Shown here: piece by piece, positions 906 to 8,817 of the stretch
How the letters are laid out: the number at the start of each line of letters is the position of its first letter
How positions within the stretch are numbered: position 1 is the first letter of the stretch
Virus record (IMG/VR): IMGVR_UViG_2872158770_000005
Strand: one strand, 5' to 3'
DNA length: 15,879 bases
Origin: a virus
Lineage: Duplodnaviria > Heunggongvirae > Uroviricota > Caudoviricetes
Program-made: the position numbers and the translations under genes
The notes under the pieces: generated by a model
What the model was told of the DNA's origin: nothing
The model's input: the letters and a program-made list of their open reading frames with translations, nothing else
The model's database searches: none

Positions 906-1988
906 TCATTTTCTCTGGCTGATCTTTACCGGATAACCATCCCGAAGATCAATTAAGTGCTCCGGTTCAGAAGCAAACCATGCATAAGATCCCCACGCCA
1001 ATTCTGGTATTGCCTTTTTAAAAGGCAGAGCACTTCTGTCCATAAATGCCGTAAGGAATGCAAGATTTTTCTCGCTGAACCCAGCGTCAATAGCCAAATG
1101 AGTGAGAGTAACTTTTCGTTCCCTGTTTATAGGCCCATCTGTCGCAACTACTTCAGTGAAAACTACAAGCATGTCCGAACCCGTTCGGTCCTCTCCCAAA
1201 TCAATCAAAATAATATCTGGAAGTGCTTTTGAGGCATCAATATTCAGCCCCAATGCTTTTGCCAATACATCATCCTGAGCAACAACTTTATTCCCGGATT
1301 CAGACAACCAGAGCACAGTTGGATTCTTAAGAAAATTAGGAGCAAAAACTTCGATGACGGCCTTAGCTATTGTACTTGACGGGCCCGGAGCTAAAGTTCT
1401 CTTCTCTCCATTTGGGAAAGTGACGACTACGGCATCAGCAGCAATCACTGCCCCTGATTTCAATAAACGCAACCTAGCAAGAGCGGCTTTGTTCAAATGA
1501 TTTTCTTGCCAGGAACTTATTGCACTCAGCAGCGAATCTCCTTCAAGCCCGGCATCAAAGAGTGCTGCAAAAGAGCGATTCAAACTGTAACGAGGACGAG
1601 AGGATGTGGTGGGTATACCTTTACGCTCAACAATTGCATTGCAAGGTATTAGGCCATTTTTTATAGTTTCATCACGTATTGGCTCACGCGTATTTTCCGC
1701 ATACCATGCATCAGCAGGCCTTATCTTTTGTTTAGAGAAAGTCATCTTTACCCAGCTTTCTCTGGACGCATCATCAGTAAGAGCAGCCTGCGAATCTCCC
1801 ATACTTACAACCTGGCTGGGCCTTATCCATCGCCCCAGCCCCTCAACCGCACCAGCATAAAACATGACAAAAATTGTTTTTGCAGCTATTTCCCGAATTA
1901 AATATCCACGATTCTCAGTCCCTTCAGGGAAAATTAATTGTAATCTTTCCCGGATAACATTCAATGGGGGAACAACAGGCAGATTCAT
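906..1988 (-). CDS. Putative Type II restriction endonuclease (cognate partner of the adjacent methyltransferase; family not assignable from sequence alone)
   Basis: 360-aa ORF directly downstream of the methyltransferase with a 4-nt ATGA stop/start overlap (1985-1988) and a GGAG SD; size and position typical of an R gene. No catalytic motif could be assigned by eye. Confidence 0.5.
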   Translation of the reverse strand: MNLPVVPPLNVIRERLQLIFPEGTENRGYLIREIAAKTIFVMFYAGAVEGLGRWIRPSQVVSMGDSQAALTDDASRESWVKMTFSKQKIRPADAWYAENTREPIRDETIKNGLIPCNAIVERKGIPTTSSRPRYSLNRSFAALFDAGLEGDSLLSAISSWQENHLNKAALARLRLLKSGAVIAADAVVVTFPNGEKRTLAPGPSSTIAKAVIEVFAPNFLKNPTVLWLSESGNKVVAQDDVLAKALGLNIDASKALPDIILIDLGEDRTGSDMLVVFTEVVATDGPINRERKVTLTHLAIDAGFSEKNLAFLTAFMDRSALPFKKAIPELAWGSYAWFASEPEHLIDLRDGYPVKISQRK

Positions 1989-3817
1989 GCAATCATCACT
2001 CCATAGAAACCAGCGATAGTTCTCTCAATAATCCGTCTGTGGACGCCAGCATCAATTAACGATTGAATCTCCATCACCTGCTCCAGAGAAGGCAACGGGA
2101 TTGAATTCAATTCATAGGCCGAAACAGCAACACTTCCGCTTATACACCTGAACGCCCGATCGACAACATGCGAATTAAGTAGCATATCAATAACATCAGG
2201 GCGAACCGCAGAGAACAATCCGTTTGAATATACAATATTAATATGGTTTTCAACTACTACGCCACCAGTTTCATCTATAAATCCCTGAGGTAAAATTGCC
2301 GCTAAAATCCTTCTGTCCTGTTCCTTCGATGTTGTCCGCTGAACAAGCACACATTCAGATTTTGTCACAAGGAAACCCTGTTGTGGGGTTATATCGATAT
2401 AGGGAACATGATTTTTTCTGTCTGCACTAAAACGAAAACCAGCTGAAGTTATTGATTCCGCCCAGACTAATGGGTAGCTATTTTTTCCTTTCGTCGTACG
2501 CAACTGCGACTTAAATCGATTCCAGACTAACTGACCTGTAGAGACTGAGTATCCCAGATCAGCTAAACGCGTAGACATCTGTTTTAATACATTAAGAAAA
2601 CAGGCATCATCTTTAACGCGTGGCAAAAGCCACGTTGCTCCACCTTTTTCTATATCAACATTACCTATTTTCTCAATTTTTGCTTTGTTCAACCCCTTAG
2701 GGACAAGTGAGGATACCTGGGCCCGAACTTTATGTTCTCCCGCCTTGAATGCTGTCAACATTGTTTCCTGGAGAACATCGTCAAAGACCCCATCCCTGTC
2801 AGTGACGAAATCAAGGGCATACGGAGTAGTTTTTTCGGTCAAAAGGGTTCGCAGCGCGGTGAAATACTGCCCACCAAGAAAAGAAGTTGGCGTAAGAAAT
2901 GCAATAACTCCTGTTTTCTCTTTAACCATGCGAACAGCTAAGTCGGTGAACAATCCATATAGATTTGCATGACCAAATAACGAACGAGAATATTTTTCTC
3001 TCGTTTTAATATCGAGAGTGACACGTCCGTAAGGCGGATTCCCTACCACAAGATCATAACCAGAAAATTTATCTTGCTGAAGCGCATCAGCAACAATAAT
3101 TGTATCTTCAGGCAATCTACGTTTTACCTTTACACATAGTGGCATTAGTACAGATTCGAGCAATACCAAACTCATCCAAGCCGCAAATGGATCGATTTCT
3201 ATCCCCTTTAAACGACGACTGATTCTCCTCAACATCCATTCAGGGGAAGACCCCTTGTCTTTTTTTAACATTCGAATGGCTACTGGTGCCAAAAATGCAC
3301 CGCCACCACACGCAGGATCAATAACCGATGCATGAGAAAAATCAACACCAGACTTTTCAGCCAGGTCCAAGAGACGCGCTACCAAAGGTGGGGGGGTATA
3401 GTAAGCCCCCAATTCCGAACGGTAAGCGGATGGCAGCATTACCGTATAAATTGACCCAATCAGATATCCAGCGTCCTCCGCCGGAAATTGAGCAATAAGC
3501 TCACCTGTTCGTTCAGCGAGCTCGCGTGCATCACATGGAATGTCTTCTATGTAAACAGTGTGCGGTACTGCCCTCATTTTAATGCTGCTTTTTTGCTTTT
3601 TTGCAAGGGTATCCCAATATGCAGCTACGATGCTGAAGCAGTATGAGCGGGCATGCATCAACCTTGACTGCCCGGTTTTGTAATTGCCCGCATAACCTTT
3701 GGCCATGGCTTTACAAGTTTGATATCTTTCCAGATTAGAAAACTCATTATCTGTAAAAAAATCAAAATGTTGCACATTCATAATGTAAAATCCTAATGTA
3801 TCAAACATGCGGGCCAT
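1985..3817 (-). CDS. N6-adenine DNA methyltransferase, gamma class (Type II modification methylase)
   Basis: Motif order X-I-IV: GAYYTPP, then DPACGGGAFL (AdoMet binding), then NPPYG (catalytic); about 340 aa follow motif IV, consistent with a target-recognition domain. Alternative start at 3784 (MNVQHF...) has a better AGGA SD. Confidence 0.85.
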   Translation of the reverse strand: MARMFDTLGFYIMNVQHFDFFTDNEFSNLERYQTCKAMAKGYAGNYKTGQSRLMHARSYCFSIVAAYWDTLAKKQKSSIKMRAVPHTVYIEDIPCDARELAERTGELIAQFPAEDAGYLIGSIYTVMLPSAYRSELGAYYTPPPLVARLLDLAEKSGVDFSHASVIDPACGGGAFLAPVAIRMLKKDKGSSPEWMLRRISRRLKGIEIDPFAAWMSLVLLESVLMPLCVKVKRRLPEDTIIVADALQQDKFSGYDLVVGNPPYGRVTLDIKTREKYSRSLFGHANLYGLFTDLAVRMVKEKTGVIAFLTPTSFLGGQYFTALRTLLTEKTTPYALDFVTDRDGVFDDVLQETMLTAFKAGEHKVRAQVSSLVPKGLNKAKIEKIGNVDIEKGGATWLLPRVKDDACFLNVLKQMSTRLADLGYSVSTGQLVWNRFKSQLRTTKGKNSYPLVWAESITSAGFRFSADRKNHVPYIDITPQQGFLVTKSECVLVQRTTSKEQDRRILAAILPQGFIDETGGVVVENHINIVYSNGLFSAVRPDVIDMLLNSHVVDRAFRCISGSVAVSAYELNSIPLPSLEQVMEIQSLIDAGVHRRIIERTIAGFYGVMIA

Positions 3818-5630: not shown

Positions 5631-6377
5631 TTACTTCACAACTCCCGGAAAGCTGACATTTGAACGCCAGCTATCCCAGTTAAACGTCACCCACCGACAA
5701 CCGTTCATGGTCATGCGGTCCATAATCCTCTCACCAAGAAGCGTGCTCATTGCGGCATGATTCAGGTTTGTTAACATCCCGACACTGCACAGTGATGCTG
5801 TCCGGCGATCAATTATCTGGTGCAATACCACCTGCTCGTTTTTCGTCTCCCGCTGAATGCCTATTTCATCCAGGACCAGCAAATCAACCCCGCAAAGCTC
5901 CTGTAAAAATTTTTCACCGGATTTGCCGTTGTCGTAGCTGTCATGCAACACGCTCATGACATCAGACTCGGTGACGATAATCACGCTGCGCCCCTTCGCC
6001 ATCAGCCGGTTACCCATCGCCGCTGCAAGGTGATTTTTCCCGGTGCCGGTTTTACCGCTGAACACAAAATTCGTGCACCCGGTCATCAGTTCGTCAGCTA
6101 TGGATTTGGCCTGGCTCAGCGCGTATTTTTGCCCGTCGTTCTGCACCTGATAATTCGCAAACGAGCATTTGCTGTGCAGAGGCTGGATGCCCGAACGATT
6201 CAGGATTTTTTCCACCCGCAACTGGCGATTCTGGCGGTTAATCTCCTCGCTGCGTTTTCGTCCTTCAGCAAGTTGCCATTCCCGCCACTCCTCCACCGTC
6301 CGGTACGGTGGAACCGCCCCCTGTGGTGCAAGTCTGTGAATACGTTCAAGAACCCCGGCTGCCGCAATGTTTTTCAT
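5631..6377 (-). CDS. Phage replication protein, DnaC-like helicase loader (AAA+ ATPase)
   Basis: Walker A GKTGTGKNHLAAAMG and Walker B DLLVLDEIG in the arrangement typical of DnaC; lies immediately downstream of the O-like initiator. Confidence 0.85.
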   Translation of the reverse strand: MKNIAAAGVLERIHRLAPQGAVPPYRTVEEWREWQLAEGRKRSEEINRQNRQLRVEKILNRSGIQPLHSKCSFANYQVQNDGQKYALSQAKSIADELMTGCTNFVFSGKTGTGKNHLAAAMGNRLMAKGRSVIIVTESDVMSVLHDSYDNGKSGEKFLQELCGVDLLVLDEIGIQRETKNEQVVLHQIIDRRTASLCSVGMLTNLNHAAMSTLLGERIMDRMTMNGCRWVTFNWDSWRSNVSFPGVVK

Positions 6378-6383
6378 GCCACA

Positions 6384-7448
6384 TCACCCCCTGAATCCCG
6401 GCGGAATTTCGGTATCCGGTTCAGAAATATGATTCACACAACGCTGGTTGTTCGTGCCGCTTACCGGGAGCAACCAGGGGTTTTCAAAATTCCGGTCCGG
6501 CCCAAAAAACGTCGTCGCTCGCTGAACAAATTCCGTTCCCGCTTTCCCGGTCGCCGCCAGGTATCTCGCGTAACGCCTCACACCATCCAGCATGGTCTCT
6601 GGTGGCACCCCCTCGCGCAATCTGGCCTTCCAGGCACTGAATGCGGATTTCTTCGGGTTTGCCCCGGCACGCAACGGGTATTCCCGCCAGACCTGTTCGA
6701 ACACATCCGGATAATCCACTCGTCCCACAGGCTGCCCGGTGTTTTCCGGGGCTACCCGATCGGCTTCCCGCTGAATGGCGGAATCGGCTTCAGGCTGCTG
6801 CAGTTGGAGTGATTGCTCCGGCCTTGCGGTCATCACCTGCTGCACAGCGCCCGAATCGGCTTTCAGCGCATACGCTGAATCGGCTTCCGGTGTCGAGCCT
6901 GCTGGCTGACCAGGATTGACGGTCTGAACATCCCCTGCCTGGTTCGTGGCGTTTTTTACGCCATGGACCATAGTGTTTTGATCTTCTTTATCTGTATCTT
7001 TATCTGTATCTGTCGTGACTCGTCGTGACATGTGCGTGACATTTCGTGACGCGCCGTGACAATCGCCATTTTGTTCCCGCTTTCTTTCCCTCTCTCGCTG
7101 CGCCCTCTTGCGCTCTGCAGGAGATTTTGCGGTTTGCGAAATATTGCCGTTGTCCTCTTTAAGCACCTGGCGTTTTTCCCATCCAGTGATTAAATCACCA
7201 TCAAGTACCCGCCCCTGCATCGTCTGCAAAATTGAATCAATTACCTCTTCTGTCACGTCGAGCGCACTTGCCAAATCTTCTGTCGTGACATCAATGTGAC
7301 CTCGCGTGACATTTCGTGACGCGCTCACCAGGAGGTGGATATACACTGCCATCACTGTTGCAATTGGCTGCCCTGACACCCTGGCAATTGTTCGCCACTT
7401 AGGGTCATTTGGCATGTCATGCCATAATCTGAGCCAGGCGTTAGCCAT
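6384..7448 (-). CDS. Phage replication initiation protein (lambda O-like / YdaU-like)
   Basis: N-terminus MANAWLRLWHDMPNDPKWR and position upstream of the DnaC-like gene; ATG at 7448 with GAGGTGA SD (track start 7454 is GTG); carries internal iteron-like repeats. Confidence 0.7.
   Translation of the reverse strand: MANAWLRLWHDMPNDPKWRTIARVSGQPIATVMAVYIHLLVSASRNVTRGHIDVTTEDLASALDVTEEVIDSILQTMQGRVLDGDLITGWEKRQVLKEDNGNISQTAKSPAERKRAQRERERKREQNGDCHGASRNVTHMSRRVTTDTDKDTDKEDQNTMVHGVKNATNQAGDVQTVNPGQPAGSTPEADSAYALKADSGAVQQVMTARPEQSLQLQQPEADSAIQREADRVAPENTGQPVGRVDYPDVFEQVWREYPLRAGANPKKSAFSAWKARLREGVPPETMLDGVRRYARYLAATGKAGTEFVQRATTFFGPDRNFENPWLLPVSGTNNQRCVNHISEPDTEIPPGFRG
6986..7060. repeat. Tandem 12-bp duplication (CTTTATCTGTAT x2, 6986-7009) followed by five CGTGAC repeats at about 10-bp spacing (7014-7060); candidate replication-origin iterons
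   Basis: Read directly: tgtCGTGACtcgtCGTGACatgtgCGTGACatttCGTGACgcgcCGTGACaat. Lies inside the O-like gene, as ori-lambda lies inside O. Confidence 0.45.
7284..7320. repeat. Second cluster of CGTGAC-type repeats (iteron-like), also inside the O-like gene
   Basis: tgtCGTGACatcaatGTGACctcgCGTGACatttCGTGAC; the 16-mer CGTGACATTTCGTGAC is shared with the first cluster. Confidence 0.4.
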
Positions 7449-7519: not shown

Positions 7520-7945
7520 TCAATGTACTGCCACAGCATTTCCTGCCGGGCCACCACGGTTCATCTGATTGAAACCGGCGATTGCCACTGCGACAAAATC
7601 ATCAGCGTCTCTCACCAGTCGTTCATGCGTCTCCACCAGTTCCCGAAAATAAGCTGAACTGTGGCTGCGCATTCGAGCCACCAGCGGAGGTGGCATTGCC
7701 CTTTCGATCGCAGGTAACAACGCCTGAATTTTTTCAACAGCGTCAGGGGTGTCTTTATCCAGCCAACGGAAAATCTTTTGGGTGTTGAGATAAAGCGTGT
7801 TGTGCTTGCTGTCGTTATGCAGAACCGGAAACGTCATTCCCAGTTCGAAATAAACCCTGGTTATTTCAGCTGCCGGAACTTTTTCACCGTCCGGATGCGC
7901 CCAGGCTTTCATCGCCATGCGGATGTGTTCATGCTTGATTTTCAT
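7520..7945 (-). CDS. YdaT-like prophage protein (Rac-type toxic/regulatory protein)
   Basis: 141-aa ORF starting MKIKHEHI, same size and position as Rac YdaT (recalled); start overlaps the upstream Cro-like stop as ATGA (7942-7945). Confidence 0.6.
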   Translation of the reverse strand: MKIKHEHIRMAMKAWAHPDGEKVPAAEITRVYFELGMTFPVLHNDSKHNTLYLNTQKIFRWLDKDTPDAVEKIQALLPAIERAMPPPLVARMRSHSSAYFRELVETHERLVRDADDFVAVAIAGFNQMNRGGPAGNAVAVH

Positions 7946-8205
7946 GAATCAACCCCCGCCGATGGTTGTGTGTTAGCCTGAAACTCAGCAGGCAAGCCGT
8001 CAGTTGGGTTGGGGTAGGTTTTACTGTCAATCTCATGTGGGGTCACCACCCATCCCGTTGCTTCACACCAACGTAATATTTTTTCTCCTGTAAGTTTTGC
8101 ACGCCCCGTTATAACGTGGCTGACCATCCCTTGGGATGCGCCAACAATCTCAGCAAATGAACTCTGGGTTATATGAAAATGATGCAAATATTCTCCAAGA
8201 TTCAT
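7942..8205 (-). CDS. Cro/YdaS-like HTH DNA-binding protein
   Basis: Helix-turn-helix segment QSSFAEIVGASQGMVSHVITG; divergent from the repressor gene; ATG at 8205 (MNLGEYLHHF...) with SD; track start 8232 is TTG. Confidence 0.65.
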   Translation of the reverse strand: MNLGEYLHHFHITQSSFAEIVGASQGMVSHVITGRAKLTGEKILRWCEATGWVVTPHEIDSKTYPNPTDGLPAEFQANTQPSAGVDS

Positions 8206-8316
8206 AATCCGCCCTATGTGATGTGTTACCAATGCATAATTAATAGCACTGTTATTTTTAAAAGTAAATAGTGATGCTATTTCAAAGTGATTAGCAATCT
8301 TATTAGAATTGGATGT
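8206..8316. promoter_or_regulatory. Divergent promoter/operator region between the Cro-like and CI-like genes (OR-like)
   Basis: Contains near-palindrome AATAGTGATGCTATT (8266-8280), related half-palindrome AATAGCACTGTTATT (8242-8256) and palindrome GATTAGCAATC (8289-8299); possible -35 TTCAAA (8282-8287) and -10 TAGAAT (8305-8310) ending 7 nt before the repressor ATG. Confidence 0.5.
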
Positions 8317-8817
8317 ATGAAAAGAAAATCATTGTCAGACACCGACCTCAACGCCGCCAGAAGACTGAAAGAAATCTGGATGGCAAAGAAATCTCAGTTG
8401 GGATTGACTCAGGAACGTGCGGCGGAAATTATGGGGTTTTCAACACAAGGGGCGGTAAGTCACTACCTAAATGGTCAAACCCCACTAAACCTTGAGGCTG
8501 TTCTAAAGTTTGCTGGCTTACTGAAAGTTCCCCCTGAGTCAATCAGGCCAGACATGGTAGATTTGCTGCAAATTGCAAGGATGTATTGTCGAGAACCACA
8601 GCAAGATAACATAGTCGCATTACCAGCAGACACAGAACAAACAGAGGATGAACTACCGTTTGCCGTAGAGCCGATGGAACGAGATTTAATCCATACGTTC
8701 AGAGCTTTTCCGAAAGAAGATCAAGAACACATGCTTCAGGAGATGAAAGATAAAAAAGAATCAATGGATCGTACGGTTGCGCGGTGGTTAGCTGCACAAA
8801 AAGGCCGTCGCGCCTAA
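8317..8817 (+). CDS. CI-type HTH (XRE family) prophage repressor, RacR/PaaR2-like; no recognisable S24 peptidase domain
   Basis: HTH LGLTQERAAEIMGFSTQGAVSHYLNG; divergent from the Cro-like gene; first gene of the repressor-antitoxin-toxin unit. Start set to ATG 8317 (MKRKSLSDT...) rather than the longer track ORF. Confidence 0.8.
   Translation: MKRKSLSDTDLNAARRLKEIWMAKKSQLGLTQERAAEIMGFSTQGAVSHYLNGQTPLNLEAVLKFAGLLKVPPESIRPDMVDLLQIARMYCREPQQDNIVALPADTEQTEDELPFAVEPMERDLIHTFRAFPKEDQEHMLQEMKDKKESMDRTVARWLAAQKGRRA

Follow-up and report, generated by a model that had tools for sequence, protein, structure and literature searches.

Initiator gene and repeat arrays

The window analysed here is a 15,879-nucleotide stretch of tailed-phage DNA (IMG/VR record IMGVR_UViG_2872158770_000005). 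On its minus strand it holds the gene of a phage replication initiator, and within this coding sequence lie two arrays of the hexamer GTCACG, an A-rich tract, and an imperfect inverted repeat. An earlier note on this DNA, made from its letters alone, had read the repeats as iterons of a candidate prophage origin inside a lambda O-like gene. The features of main concern are listed in window coordinates.

6384-7448, minus strand: initiator gene of the 'phage replisome organizer' type, 354 amino acids, ATG at 7448 (open reading frame and translation)
7284-7320, minus strand: array A, putative iterons; exact GTCACG at 7315-7320, 7305-7310, and 7284-7289, degenerate GTCACA at 7295-7300
7252-7257, plus strand: single inverted copy of the hexamer, 26 bp past array A in gene direction, at codons D64-V65-T66
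7014-7060, minus strand: array B, putative iterons; five GTCACG (plus-strand CGTGAC starting at 7014, 7024, 7035, 7045, and 7055)
6972-7013, minus strand: A-rich, purine-rich tract (ACAGATACAGATAAAGATACAGATAAAGAAGATCAAAACAC) directly after array B; candidate DNA-unwinding element
6940-6970, no strand assigned: imperfect inverted repeat with 13-nt arms and a 5-nt loop, just past the A-rich tract
6387-6458, minus strand: C-terminal tail of the initiator, residues 331-354 (...NHISEPDTEIPPGFRG / ...RCVNHISEPDTEIPPGFRG), near-identical to the DnaT C-terminal tail

Array B has five copies at about 10-bp spacing, as the earlier note had described. The distances along the plus strand are 10, 11, 10, and 10 bp, and the gene-strand letters from 7060 down to 7014 are GTCACG-gcgc-GTCACG-aaat-GTCACG-cacat-GTCACG-acga-GTCACG. 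Array A consists of three exact copies and one degenerate copy, spaced by 10, 10, and 11 bp in gene direction (GCGC-GTCACG-aaat-GTCACG-cgag-GTCACa-ttgat-GTCACG, 7320 down to 7284); in the plus-strand view, CGTGAC starts at 7284, 7305, and 7315 and the degenerate TGTGAC at 7295. The two arrays are ~230 bp apart in the same orientation, and ~190 bp of ordinary coding sequence separates the inverted copy from array B. A second cluster some 250 bp away that repeats a 16-mer had also been claimed. The 16-mer CGTGACATTTCGTGAC is common to arrays B and A (7035-7050 and 7305-7320), and the full exact match even extends to the 21-mer GCGTGACATTTCGTGACGCGC (7034-7054 and 7304-7324). The repeat unit is a 6-bp core, and spacer positions 8-10 are variable. 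The one-turn spacing would place all sites on one face of the DNA and would favour a cooperative filament.

The number of hexamers in the whole window is not significant by itself, with 11 copies of CGTGAC against 6.6 expected and 13 of 200 shuffles reaching 11. Their clustering is significant, since nine of the 11 copies fall inside 307 bp. Eight of these nine exact copies have the same orientation, and so does the degenerate copy. CGTGAC is the sole non-homopolymer hexamer with at least four copies per 60-bp stretch anywhere in the 15.9-kb window. For the chain of five copies at successive 10/11-bp spacing, the maximum in 300 dinucleotide-preserving shuffles was two. The earlier observation of the repeats was confirmed in all its details. 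In translation, the repeats read as VT, SR, CH, and DTDK segments, consistent with the Val-Thr and Asp-Thr-Asp-Lys segments reported earlier. Array A encodes residues 43-55 (ASRNVTRGHIDVT), and array B encodes CHGASRNVTHMSRRVT, in a predicted disordered linker.

Conservation of the layout in related genes

The comparative set comprised 44 loci from a scan with one genome per species and four loci from exact protein look-ups. A scan of viral contigs gave near-identical alleles alone, which were used for polymorphism only. The layout is kept in ~30 genes of gamma- and beta-proteobacteria, the hosts being Enterobacteriaceae, Pseudomonas, Entomomonas, Gilvimarinus, Aquitalea, Chromobacterium, Bordetella, Acidovorax, Castellaniella, and Pseudothauera, and it is present in D3-like Pseudomonas phages too. 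Nearly all genes with the shared N-terminal module (invariant WLRLWHDMPNDPKWRT) have the same array anatomy. In these relatives, array A has two to six exact hexamers at gene nt ~129/139/149/160 (span ~129-165), and an inverted hexamer follows ~30 nt past it. Array B, with one to six exact copies in 25 related genes (mostly three to six), starts 188-340 nt past the last copy of array A (median 229). The recurrence of the arrays at the same gene positions in such distant genera is part of the evidence for the reading of the repeats as iterons of a candidate prophage origin, which is the best supported explanation; the comparative case for it is much stronger than the letters alone could show.

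The complete 40-kb genome of phage Evi has hexamer clusters in the initiator gene only, which contains nine of the 26 copies; the other 17 match the whole-genome chance expectation of 17.9. In the D3-like Pseudomonas phage phi1 (KT887557; L130, 4001-4897), the initiator gene with both GTCACG arrays is unannotated and lies in the gap ahead of a gene annotated 'replication protein P'.

Constraint on the DNA sequence

We compared codon usage in 18 genes from different genera whose first 118 codons align without gaps. The mean synonymous-codon entropy was 0.12 bit for the eight hexamer codons versus 1.46 bit for 49 codons of conserved residues elsewhere (Mann-Whitney p = 7.6e-6). Val47 GTC, Thr48 ACG, Gly50 GGT, His51 CAC, Val54 GTC, and Thr55 ACG are each found in 18 of 18 genes, and at the spacer codon Arg49, which is flanked by hexamers, CGA, CGT, CGC, and CGG are all in use. 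In the inverted copy, Val65 is encoded by GTG in all 16 of the 16 genes having Val there. Single-nucleotide polymorphisms in the arrays of 78 near-identical Escherichia coli/Shigella alleles fall in the spacers.

Hexamers occur in each of the three reading frames. Over 25 genes, frames 0, 1, and 2 account for 48, 25, and 18 of them in array A and for 28, 27, and 32 in array B, and the peptides produced by the different frames, VT, xSR, and (C/G)H, are unrelated. Because the three-frame use is accompanied by frozen synonymous sites, an explanation at the peptide level is excluded, and the possibility that the arrays are simply a peptide repeat was rejected. The comparison of these genes shows that the repeats are selected as nucleotide sequence, with a period equal to the DNA helical repeat.

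A-rich tract and neighbouring inverted repeat

The tandem 12-bp duplication that had been pointed out beside the five-copy array was recovered at 6985-7011 (2.2 copies, 100% match, Tandem Repeats Finder); it lies within the A-rich tract and adjoins array B. The local GC content of the tract is 0.35-0.375 (0.35 at 6980-7019) versus ~0.6 in the 3' half of the gene. Array A has no AT-rich tract beside it. In most relatives the equivalent tract, (GATAAA/GATACA)n, begins immediately behind the last exact hexamer, whereas in six genes (L088, L089, L096, L098, L105, and L116) one or two extra degenerate units come in between. The tract is purine-rich, and its AT content is typically 0.60-0.78 even where the gene has a GC content of 65-68%. 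Among the 78 near-identical alleles, the copy number of the 12-bp unit ranges from ~1.5 to 4.5.

A GATC site is located at 6980-6983, inside the tract. The enterobacterial tracts (the window and L081, L082, L090, L098, L105, and L117) have one or two such Dam sites each, and GATC is absent from the beta-proteobacterial tracts inspected (e.g. L091 and L093). The GATC in the tract may link the origin to Dam/SeqA control.

The inverted repeat at 6940-6970 corresponds to a 13-pair hairpin with a T-rich tail, terminator-like on the plus strand and antisense to the initiator gene. Its stem core, TGGCG-N5/6-CGCCA, is retained in the diverged relatives L081-L084. The role of the hairpin is uncertain: it could be an origin element or an antisense terminator, or it could be retained merely through the peptide HGxKxA. 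In phage lambda, too, a palindrome lies past the AT-rich tract. As for promoters and terminators in general, the predicted counts are at chance level and the single promoter-like match is the iterons themselves, so that this reading of the segment was rejected.

Initiator protein

The initiator matches PHROG 3729, 'replication initiation protein', with an E value of 3e-250, and more weakly PHROG 4880 and 5968, 'replisome organizer' (E 2e-5 and 4e-4); its NCBI name is 'phage replisome organizer'. The full-protein scan gave no Pfam family at E<0.01. Phage_rep_O (PF04492) had no match in scans of the full protein or of the N-domain, and no ATPase domain was found in the Pfam and PHROG scans. Residues 5-123 align with positions 1-119 of the 121-position PF09681 profile at 15.9 bits, which is below the cut-off of 23.3 (E 0.013). 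This family, sub-threshold for the initiator itself, matches 7 of 22 relatives at E<1. The hhalign profile comparison of the initiator with SPP1 gp38 and TP901-1 Rep was not significant. Judged by these matches, the initiator may be a remote relative of the phage replisome organizers, with a similarity below threshold, and is not a lambda O homologue by sequence. The label 'O-like' given to the gene earlier is thus apt for its position and logic and fails for homology, as there is no match to Phage_rep_O.

The protein has an N-terminal domain (residues 1 to ~128), a predicted disordered linker (129-243), a helical C-terminal domain (244-330), and a tail. The AlphaFold2 model, built from 17 sequences, is weak overall and internally sensible, with a mean predicted local distance difference test score (pLDDT) of 53. 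In this model the N-domain is helical (helices 2-14, 16-25, 29-45, 56-63, and 67-78, and a basic helix 110-126), the stretch 129-243 is disordered, and the C-domain has three helices (248-300). Array A codes for the low-confidence loop 46-55 between helices 29-45 and 56-63, and array B and the tract code for the start of the disordered linker. Both arrays are therefore predicted to be in structurally permissive segments, a loop and a disordered linker. The linker-like region to which the repeats had been assigned in the earlier note holds for array B and the tract and not for array A, whose loop lies inside the N-terminal domain of the model. A fold assignment by Foldseek against the PDB was attempted and dropped: there was no match at E<2, and the weak matches, mostly winged-helix regulators, were unusable.

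The linker contains 36-nt direct repeats at 6759-6794 and 6855-6890 that encode PEADSA-type segments. Four alleles (P0003, P0004, P0008, and P0018) have deletions ending at the 36-nt repeats or at array B, which indicates that the linker length varies by repeat-mediated deletion.

The protein is modular, since residues 1-~160 and ~198-354 are found separately with other partners, for example DnaT-like PF17948 C-domains. Its last 21 residues (...ISEPDTEIPPGFRG) are almost the same as the tail of host DnaT, RDVNTVSEPDSQIPPGFRG; the DnaT tail matches are PDB entry 6aep (E 5e-4) and also 2ru8 and 9zbt. The globular C-terminal domain was considered as a DnaT homologue and rejected, as it gave no significant match and only the last ~21 residues match. 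The DnaT-like tail is kept in relatives with a different N-domain (L119-L125). DnaT is a preprimosome protein thought to recruit DnaB/DnaC (PMC13377028). The resemblance suggests that the tail mimics the docking peptide of this host replication-restart protein.

Repeat variants and the N-terminal domain

The core is GTCACG in most genes, GTAACG in L081-083, 104, 107, 115, and 117, and CGAACG in L112, 114, and 116. All three variants end in ACG, and their differences affect one to three of the three bases before it. Within a gene, both arrays have the same variant, except in L104, L107, and L109, where they are mixed or switched. The loop and linker peptides likewise match within a protein and differ between proteins; P0060, for example, has GNAGVTQSNA at both sites. 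L109 has GTCACG while its closest relatives have GTAACG (L104 and L107 being mixed), as if the repeat variant had been switched recently. Outside the iteron-encoded positions, no residue was found that convincingly tracks the hexamer variant; the hexamer itself encodes the H/N/R residue that comes after the invariant Arg-Gly. In one subclade (L083, L104, L107, and L109), extra hexamers are located at gene nt ~213-230, in the helix after the loop (DVTE-R/S-H/N-V), and whether this helix has His or Asn there depends on the base, C or A, by which GTCACG and GTAACG differ.

Relatives from Pluralibacter, Citrobacter, and Raoultella (L119-L125) have the same C-domain and an unrelated N-terminal domain (MRDYATVAPQFWLG...; no Pfam match). 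GTCACG arrays are absent from these genes. Their repeat is GAAGGGGCT (AGGGGCT word; GAAAGGGTT in L119), present twice at 11-bp spacing in each of two sites. The sites are 255 bp apart, at gene nt ~177-205 (~186) and ~409-460, and the second is followed by a low-complexity tract, (GATCAGGAACAG)n. The two-site layout is thus not peculiar to the GTCACG family: another domain goes with another word in the same layout. Most loci in which the GTCACG arrays are retained have had CI, Cro, YdaT, the DnaC-like gene, and the C-domain replaced. Since a different N-domain has a different repeat and the flanking genes have been exchanged, the N-terminal domain is the simplest candidate for the protein part that binds the arrays.

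Genomic context

The genes around the initiator, and a restriction-modification pair a few genes downstream of the replication module and within the prophage (906-3817, minus strand), are as follows.

5631-6377, minus strand: DnaC-like helicase loader, directly downstream of the initiator gene (Pfam IstB_IS21 and Bac_DnaA; PHROG 50)
7520-7945, minus strand: YdaT/cII-like (Pfam/PHROG)
7942-8232, minus strand: Cro-like (Pfam/PHROG)
8287-8817, plus strand: CI-like repressor (Pfam/PHROG)
906-1988, minus strand: BsuBI/PstI-type endonuclease of the restriction-modification pair
1985-3817, minus strand: Eco57I/N6-adenine methylase-like protein of the restriction-modification pair

The DnaC-like gene also matches PRK12377 (E 2e-150) and DnaC (E 2e-88). 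The gene order, CI-like, Cro-like, YdaT/cII-like, initiator, DnaC-like loader, and DUF1627 and DUF977 genes, is that of a Rac/lambdoid early-right operon, and it recurs around the relatives L081-L084, which are 46-56% identical. The loader is optional. Phage Evi (L129, LR597642) and L084 are without a DnaC-like gene and have DUF977/LygF right after the initiator, which fits a reliance on host factors.

Three copies of IS1-like elements (1-~770, ~10278-11000, and ~12291-13020) are recognized as repeated pairs of open reading frames of 167 and 91 amino acids. The prophage region is probably cryptic and is heavily interrupted in a pattern typical of Shigella; initiator alleles identical to that of the window are labelled Shigella sonnei. 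The candidate origin segment of the window is nevertheless 97% identical to segments of sequenced phages.

Comparison with known origins

The layout has parallels among known origins located within initiator genes. In phage lambda, iterons and an AT-rich tract are located in the middle of gene O (PMC7466680), and both this origin and the candidate described here lie inside the initiator gene of the early-right operon. The comparison with the lambda origin that the earlier note had suggested turned out to be partly favourable. Shared are direct repeats within the gene, followed by a promoter-distal A-rich tract with a purine skew, whose translation is an acidic/basic linker; past the tract, an inverted repeat; directly downstream, the gene of a helicase loader; and a modular protein with an N-terminal, origin-side domain and a C-terminal, loader-side domain. 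The initiator, however, is not an O homologue (no PF04492 match), and the loader is DnaC-like rather than lambda P. The lambda iterons are ~19 bp long and dyad-symmetric, whereas the core here is 6 bp at 10/11-bp spacing. Lambda has one array, whereas here two are ~230 bp apart with the first in an N-domain loop.

Phage replisome organizers provide the second parallel. These two-domain proteins bind repeats in their own genes, with a helicase loader taking over from them (PMC6316719, PMC8965321). In SPP1, gp38 binds direct repeats beside an AT-rich unwinding element inside gene 38 (PMC6316719), and the organizers of TP901-1 and Tuc2009 bind repeats inside their own genes (PMC8965321). The present gene resembles SPP1 gp38/oriL, TP901-1 ORF13, and Tuc2009 Rep2009 in having direct repeats as well as an AT-rich element within the coding sequence, and a helicase-loader gene follows directly, being DnaC-like here and absent in some relatives. 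It differs from SPP1 and TP901-1 in its proteobacterial hosts, as opposed to Firmicutes, and in a similarity below the Pfam cut-off. The repeat periods of TP901-1 rep and SPP1 gene 38 are 15 nt and 9 nt, and the repeat sequence also differs.

Very short iterons in two sets are known from the origins of staphylococcal pathogenicity islands (SaPI), where winged-helix domains read iterons of 5-6 nt (PMC9371898). The SaPI sets flank the AT-rich region in opposite directions downstream of rep, and the initiator is itself the helicase, whereas the present sets have the same direction inside the gene, the tract comes after the second set, and there is no AAA+/SF3 ATPase domain. Iteron plasmids (RepA/pi/TrfA) have direct-repeat arrays, a plasmid-specific initiator, and an adjacent AT-rich region, with inverted copies possibly serving control. 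Their iterons, unlike the 6-bp core inside the present gene, are 17-22 bp long with a spacing of about two turns and lie outside rep, and the present initiator has no Rep_3-type (WH1-WH2) Pfam match. An attempt to find an autonomous plasmid replicon carrying the present initiator was uninformative, giving only large plasmids that carry prophages, chromosomes filed wrongly, and two Pseudomonas records of ~51 kb that look like phage genomes.

Proposed origin and alternative explanations

The repeats are likely, in our view, to be iterons, to which the initiator would bind at a phage replication origin lying within its own gene. By analogy with ori-lambda, SPP1 oriL, and the lactococcal organizers, array B and the tract would be the core origin, with initiator sites beside a DNA-unwinding element. 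Array A and the inverted copy would be an auxiliary set, acting either in a wrapped or looped complex with array B or in control. We infer the binding protein, looping, melting, helicase recruitment, and origin activity in the following way. Transcription from the Cro-side early promoter would produce the initiator, and its N-terminal domain would bind the GTCACG hexamers, which at one-turn spacing are all on the same side of the DNA. With array A (including the inverted copy) and array B both occupied, the ~230 bp between them would probably be bent or looped into a nucleoprotein complex. The stress would be released by melting of the A-rich tract at 6972-7013. The C-terminal part, ending in the copy of the DnaT tail, would then recruit the DnaB helicase with the DnaC-like loader; in phages without a DnaC-like gene, host DnaC would serve instead.

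A more general design can be put forward only tentatively, and we regard it as rather doubtful in its full form. In such a bipartite in-gene origin, a design so far undescribed, one array would lie in a surface loop of the DNA-binding domain and the second in the interdomain linker ~230-260 bp downstream. Initiator oligomers would join the arrays, wrap the DNA, and melt (GATAAA)n. At least two unrelated N-domain families would use the design, each with its own repeat, and concerted drift of the repeat within one family (GTCACG, GTAACG, CGAACG) would give natural origin/initiator pairs.

Several observations weigh against the iteron interpretation. The N-terminal domain has no significant DNA-binding fold (Foldseek E>2 with a model of pLDDT 53, and a sub-threshold PF09681 match). 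Six members (L111, L113, L118, L122, L124, and L126) have no obvious 10/11-bp arrays; therefore, the layout is not universal, or their origins are located elsewhere. The arrays are co-inherited with the N-domain in part trivially, as they lie inside its coding sequence. The concerted pattern of the two arrays could be due in part to homogenisation by slippage or gene conversion, and any switching of specificity between the variants may be weak, as they have their last three bases in common. The IS1-ridden prophage of the window may be defective, and the element may not fire in the present genome. In the searchable literature, from which older subscription papers were outside the scope, we found no description of GTCACG iterons and no experimental report of the segment replicating or of the protein binding it.

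Among the alternatives, the one that fares best, though unlikely, is that the arrays are initiator sites for control (autorepression, titration, or handcuffing) and that strand opening occurs elsewhere. Two separate arrays with an inverted hexamer close to the gene's 5' part would suit such a role, as would the lack of an AT-rich tract adjoining array A. Iteron plasmids autorepress through inverted half-sites. Array B, however, adjoins the conserved A-rich tract, with no gap in most relatives, an arrangement known from other origins (PMC7466680, PMC6316719), and the complete genome of phage Evi is without another hexamer cluster that could act as the origin. Control and initiation roles can also coexist. 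A role in control only is therefore possible for array A and unlikely for array B.

Binding of the arrays by another protein is quite improbable. Candidates would be a host nucleoid or replication factor, CI, Cro, YdaT, or a ParR-like centromere-binding protein. Direct repeats that are short and lie one turn apart typify cooperative binders in general, and parC of plasmid R1 has two sets of 11-bp repeats. Phage-encoded candidates are opposed by the loci that keep the arrays, most of which have replaced CI, Cro, YdaT, the DnaC-like protein, and the C-domain, and by the pairing of a different N-terminal domain with a different repeat. Against a host factor, the variants differ among related enterobacterial hosts, whereas one variant spans beta- and gamma-proteobacteria; for DnaA in particular, no box with up to one mismatch was found near the gene. 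A ParR/parC-type centromere is disfavoured by the absence of partition genes from the window and from the complete Evi genome; such a centromere has its repeats around the promoter of adjacent partition ATPase and adaptor genes, and those here are inside a coding sequence.

It is more improbable still that the repeats act as RNA, as sites of an RNA-binding protein or in translational pausing, or arise as a by-product of peptide selection. The repeats are indeed transcribed and translated, and the GTCACG group has a conserved loop peptide, (A)S(R/Q)NVTRGH..VT. Yet the use of three frames with unrelated peptides, the frozen synonymous sites next to a free spacer codon, and a 10/11-nt spacing that equals the DNA helical repeat all speak for DNA. 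The inverted copy is frozen as well, and relatives contain the palindromes GTCACGTGAC and GTAACGTTAC, both of which fit recognition of double-stranded DNA. No Rfam family was found, the only hit being a chance microRNA match far below threshold, and folding was no better than that of shuffled sequences (z = -1.4).

A chance feature or a functionless product of neutral slippage, for which one could cite the slippage in copy number of the adjacent 12-bp tract and the non-significant hexamer count of the window, has a negligible probability and is effectively refuted by the shuffle controls, the fixed gene positions across bacterial classes, and the frozen synonymous sites.

Significance

Origins inside initiator genes are textbook knowledge for lambda, and no principle is overturned by a phage origin at this position. 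What sets the present arrangement apart from lambda, SPP1, TP901-1, SaPI, and the iteron plasmids is the 6-bp core at one-turn spacing and the two arrays in the same orientation, ~230 bp apart and with one of them in a loop of the putative DNA-binding domain. The breadth and strictness of its conservation are also distinctive, as is the fact that a second N-domain family has the two-site layout too. If the interpretation as iterons is true, the origin of a very common replication module would be defined. The 90%-identity cluster of the initiator contains ~5,800 E. coli/Shigella sequences, and the initiator of this module is usually annotated vaguely or, as in phage phi1, not at all. The arrays are also a clean case of a DNA signal overlaid on coding sequence in three reading frames. 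The codon choice frozen across bacterial classes calls for caution in codon-based analyses and in recoding. The variant hexamers and the second domain family offer material for studying the co-evolution of initiator and origin specificity, and possibly for compatible mini-replicons.

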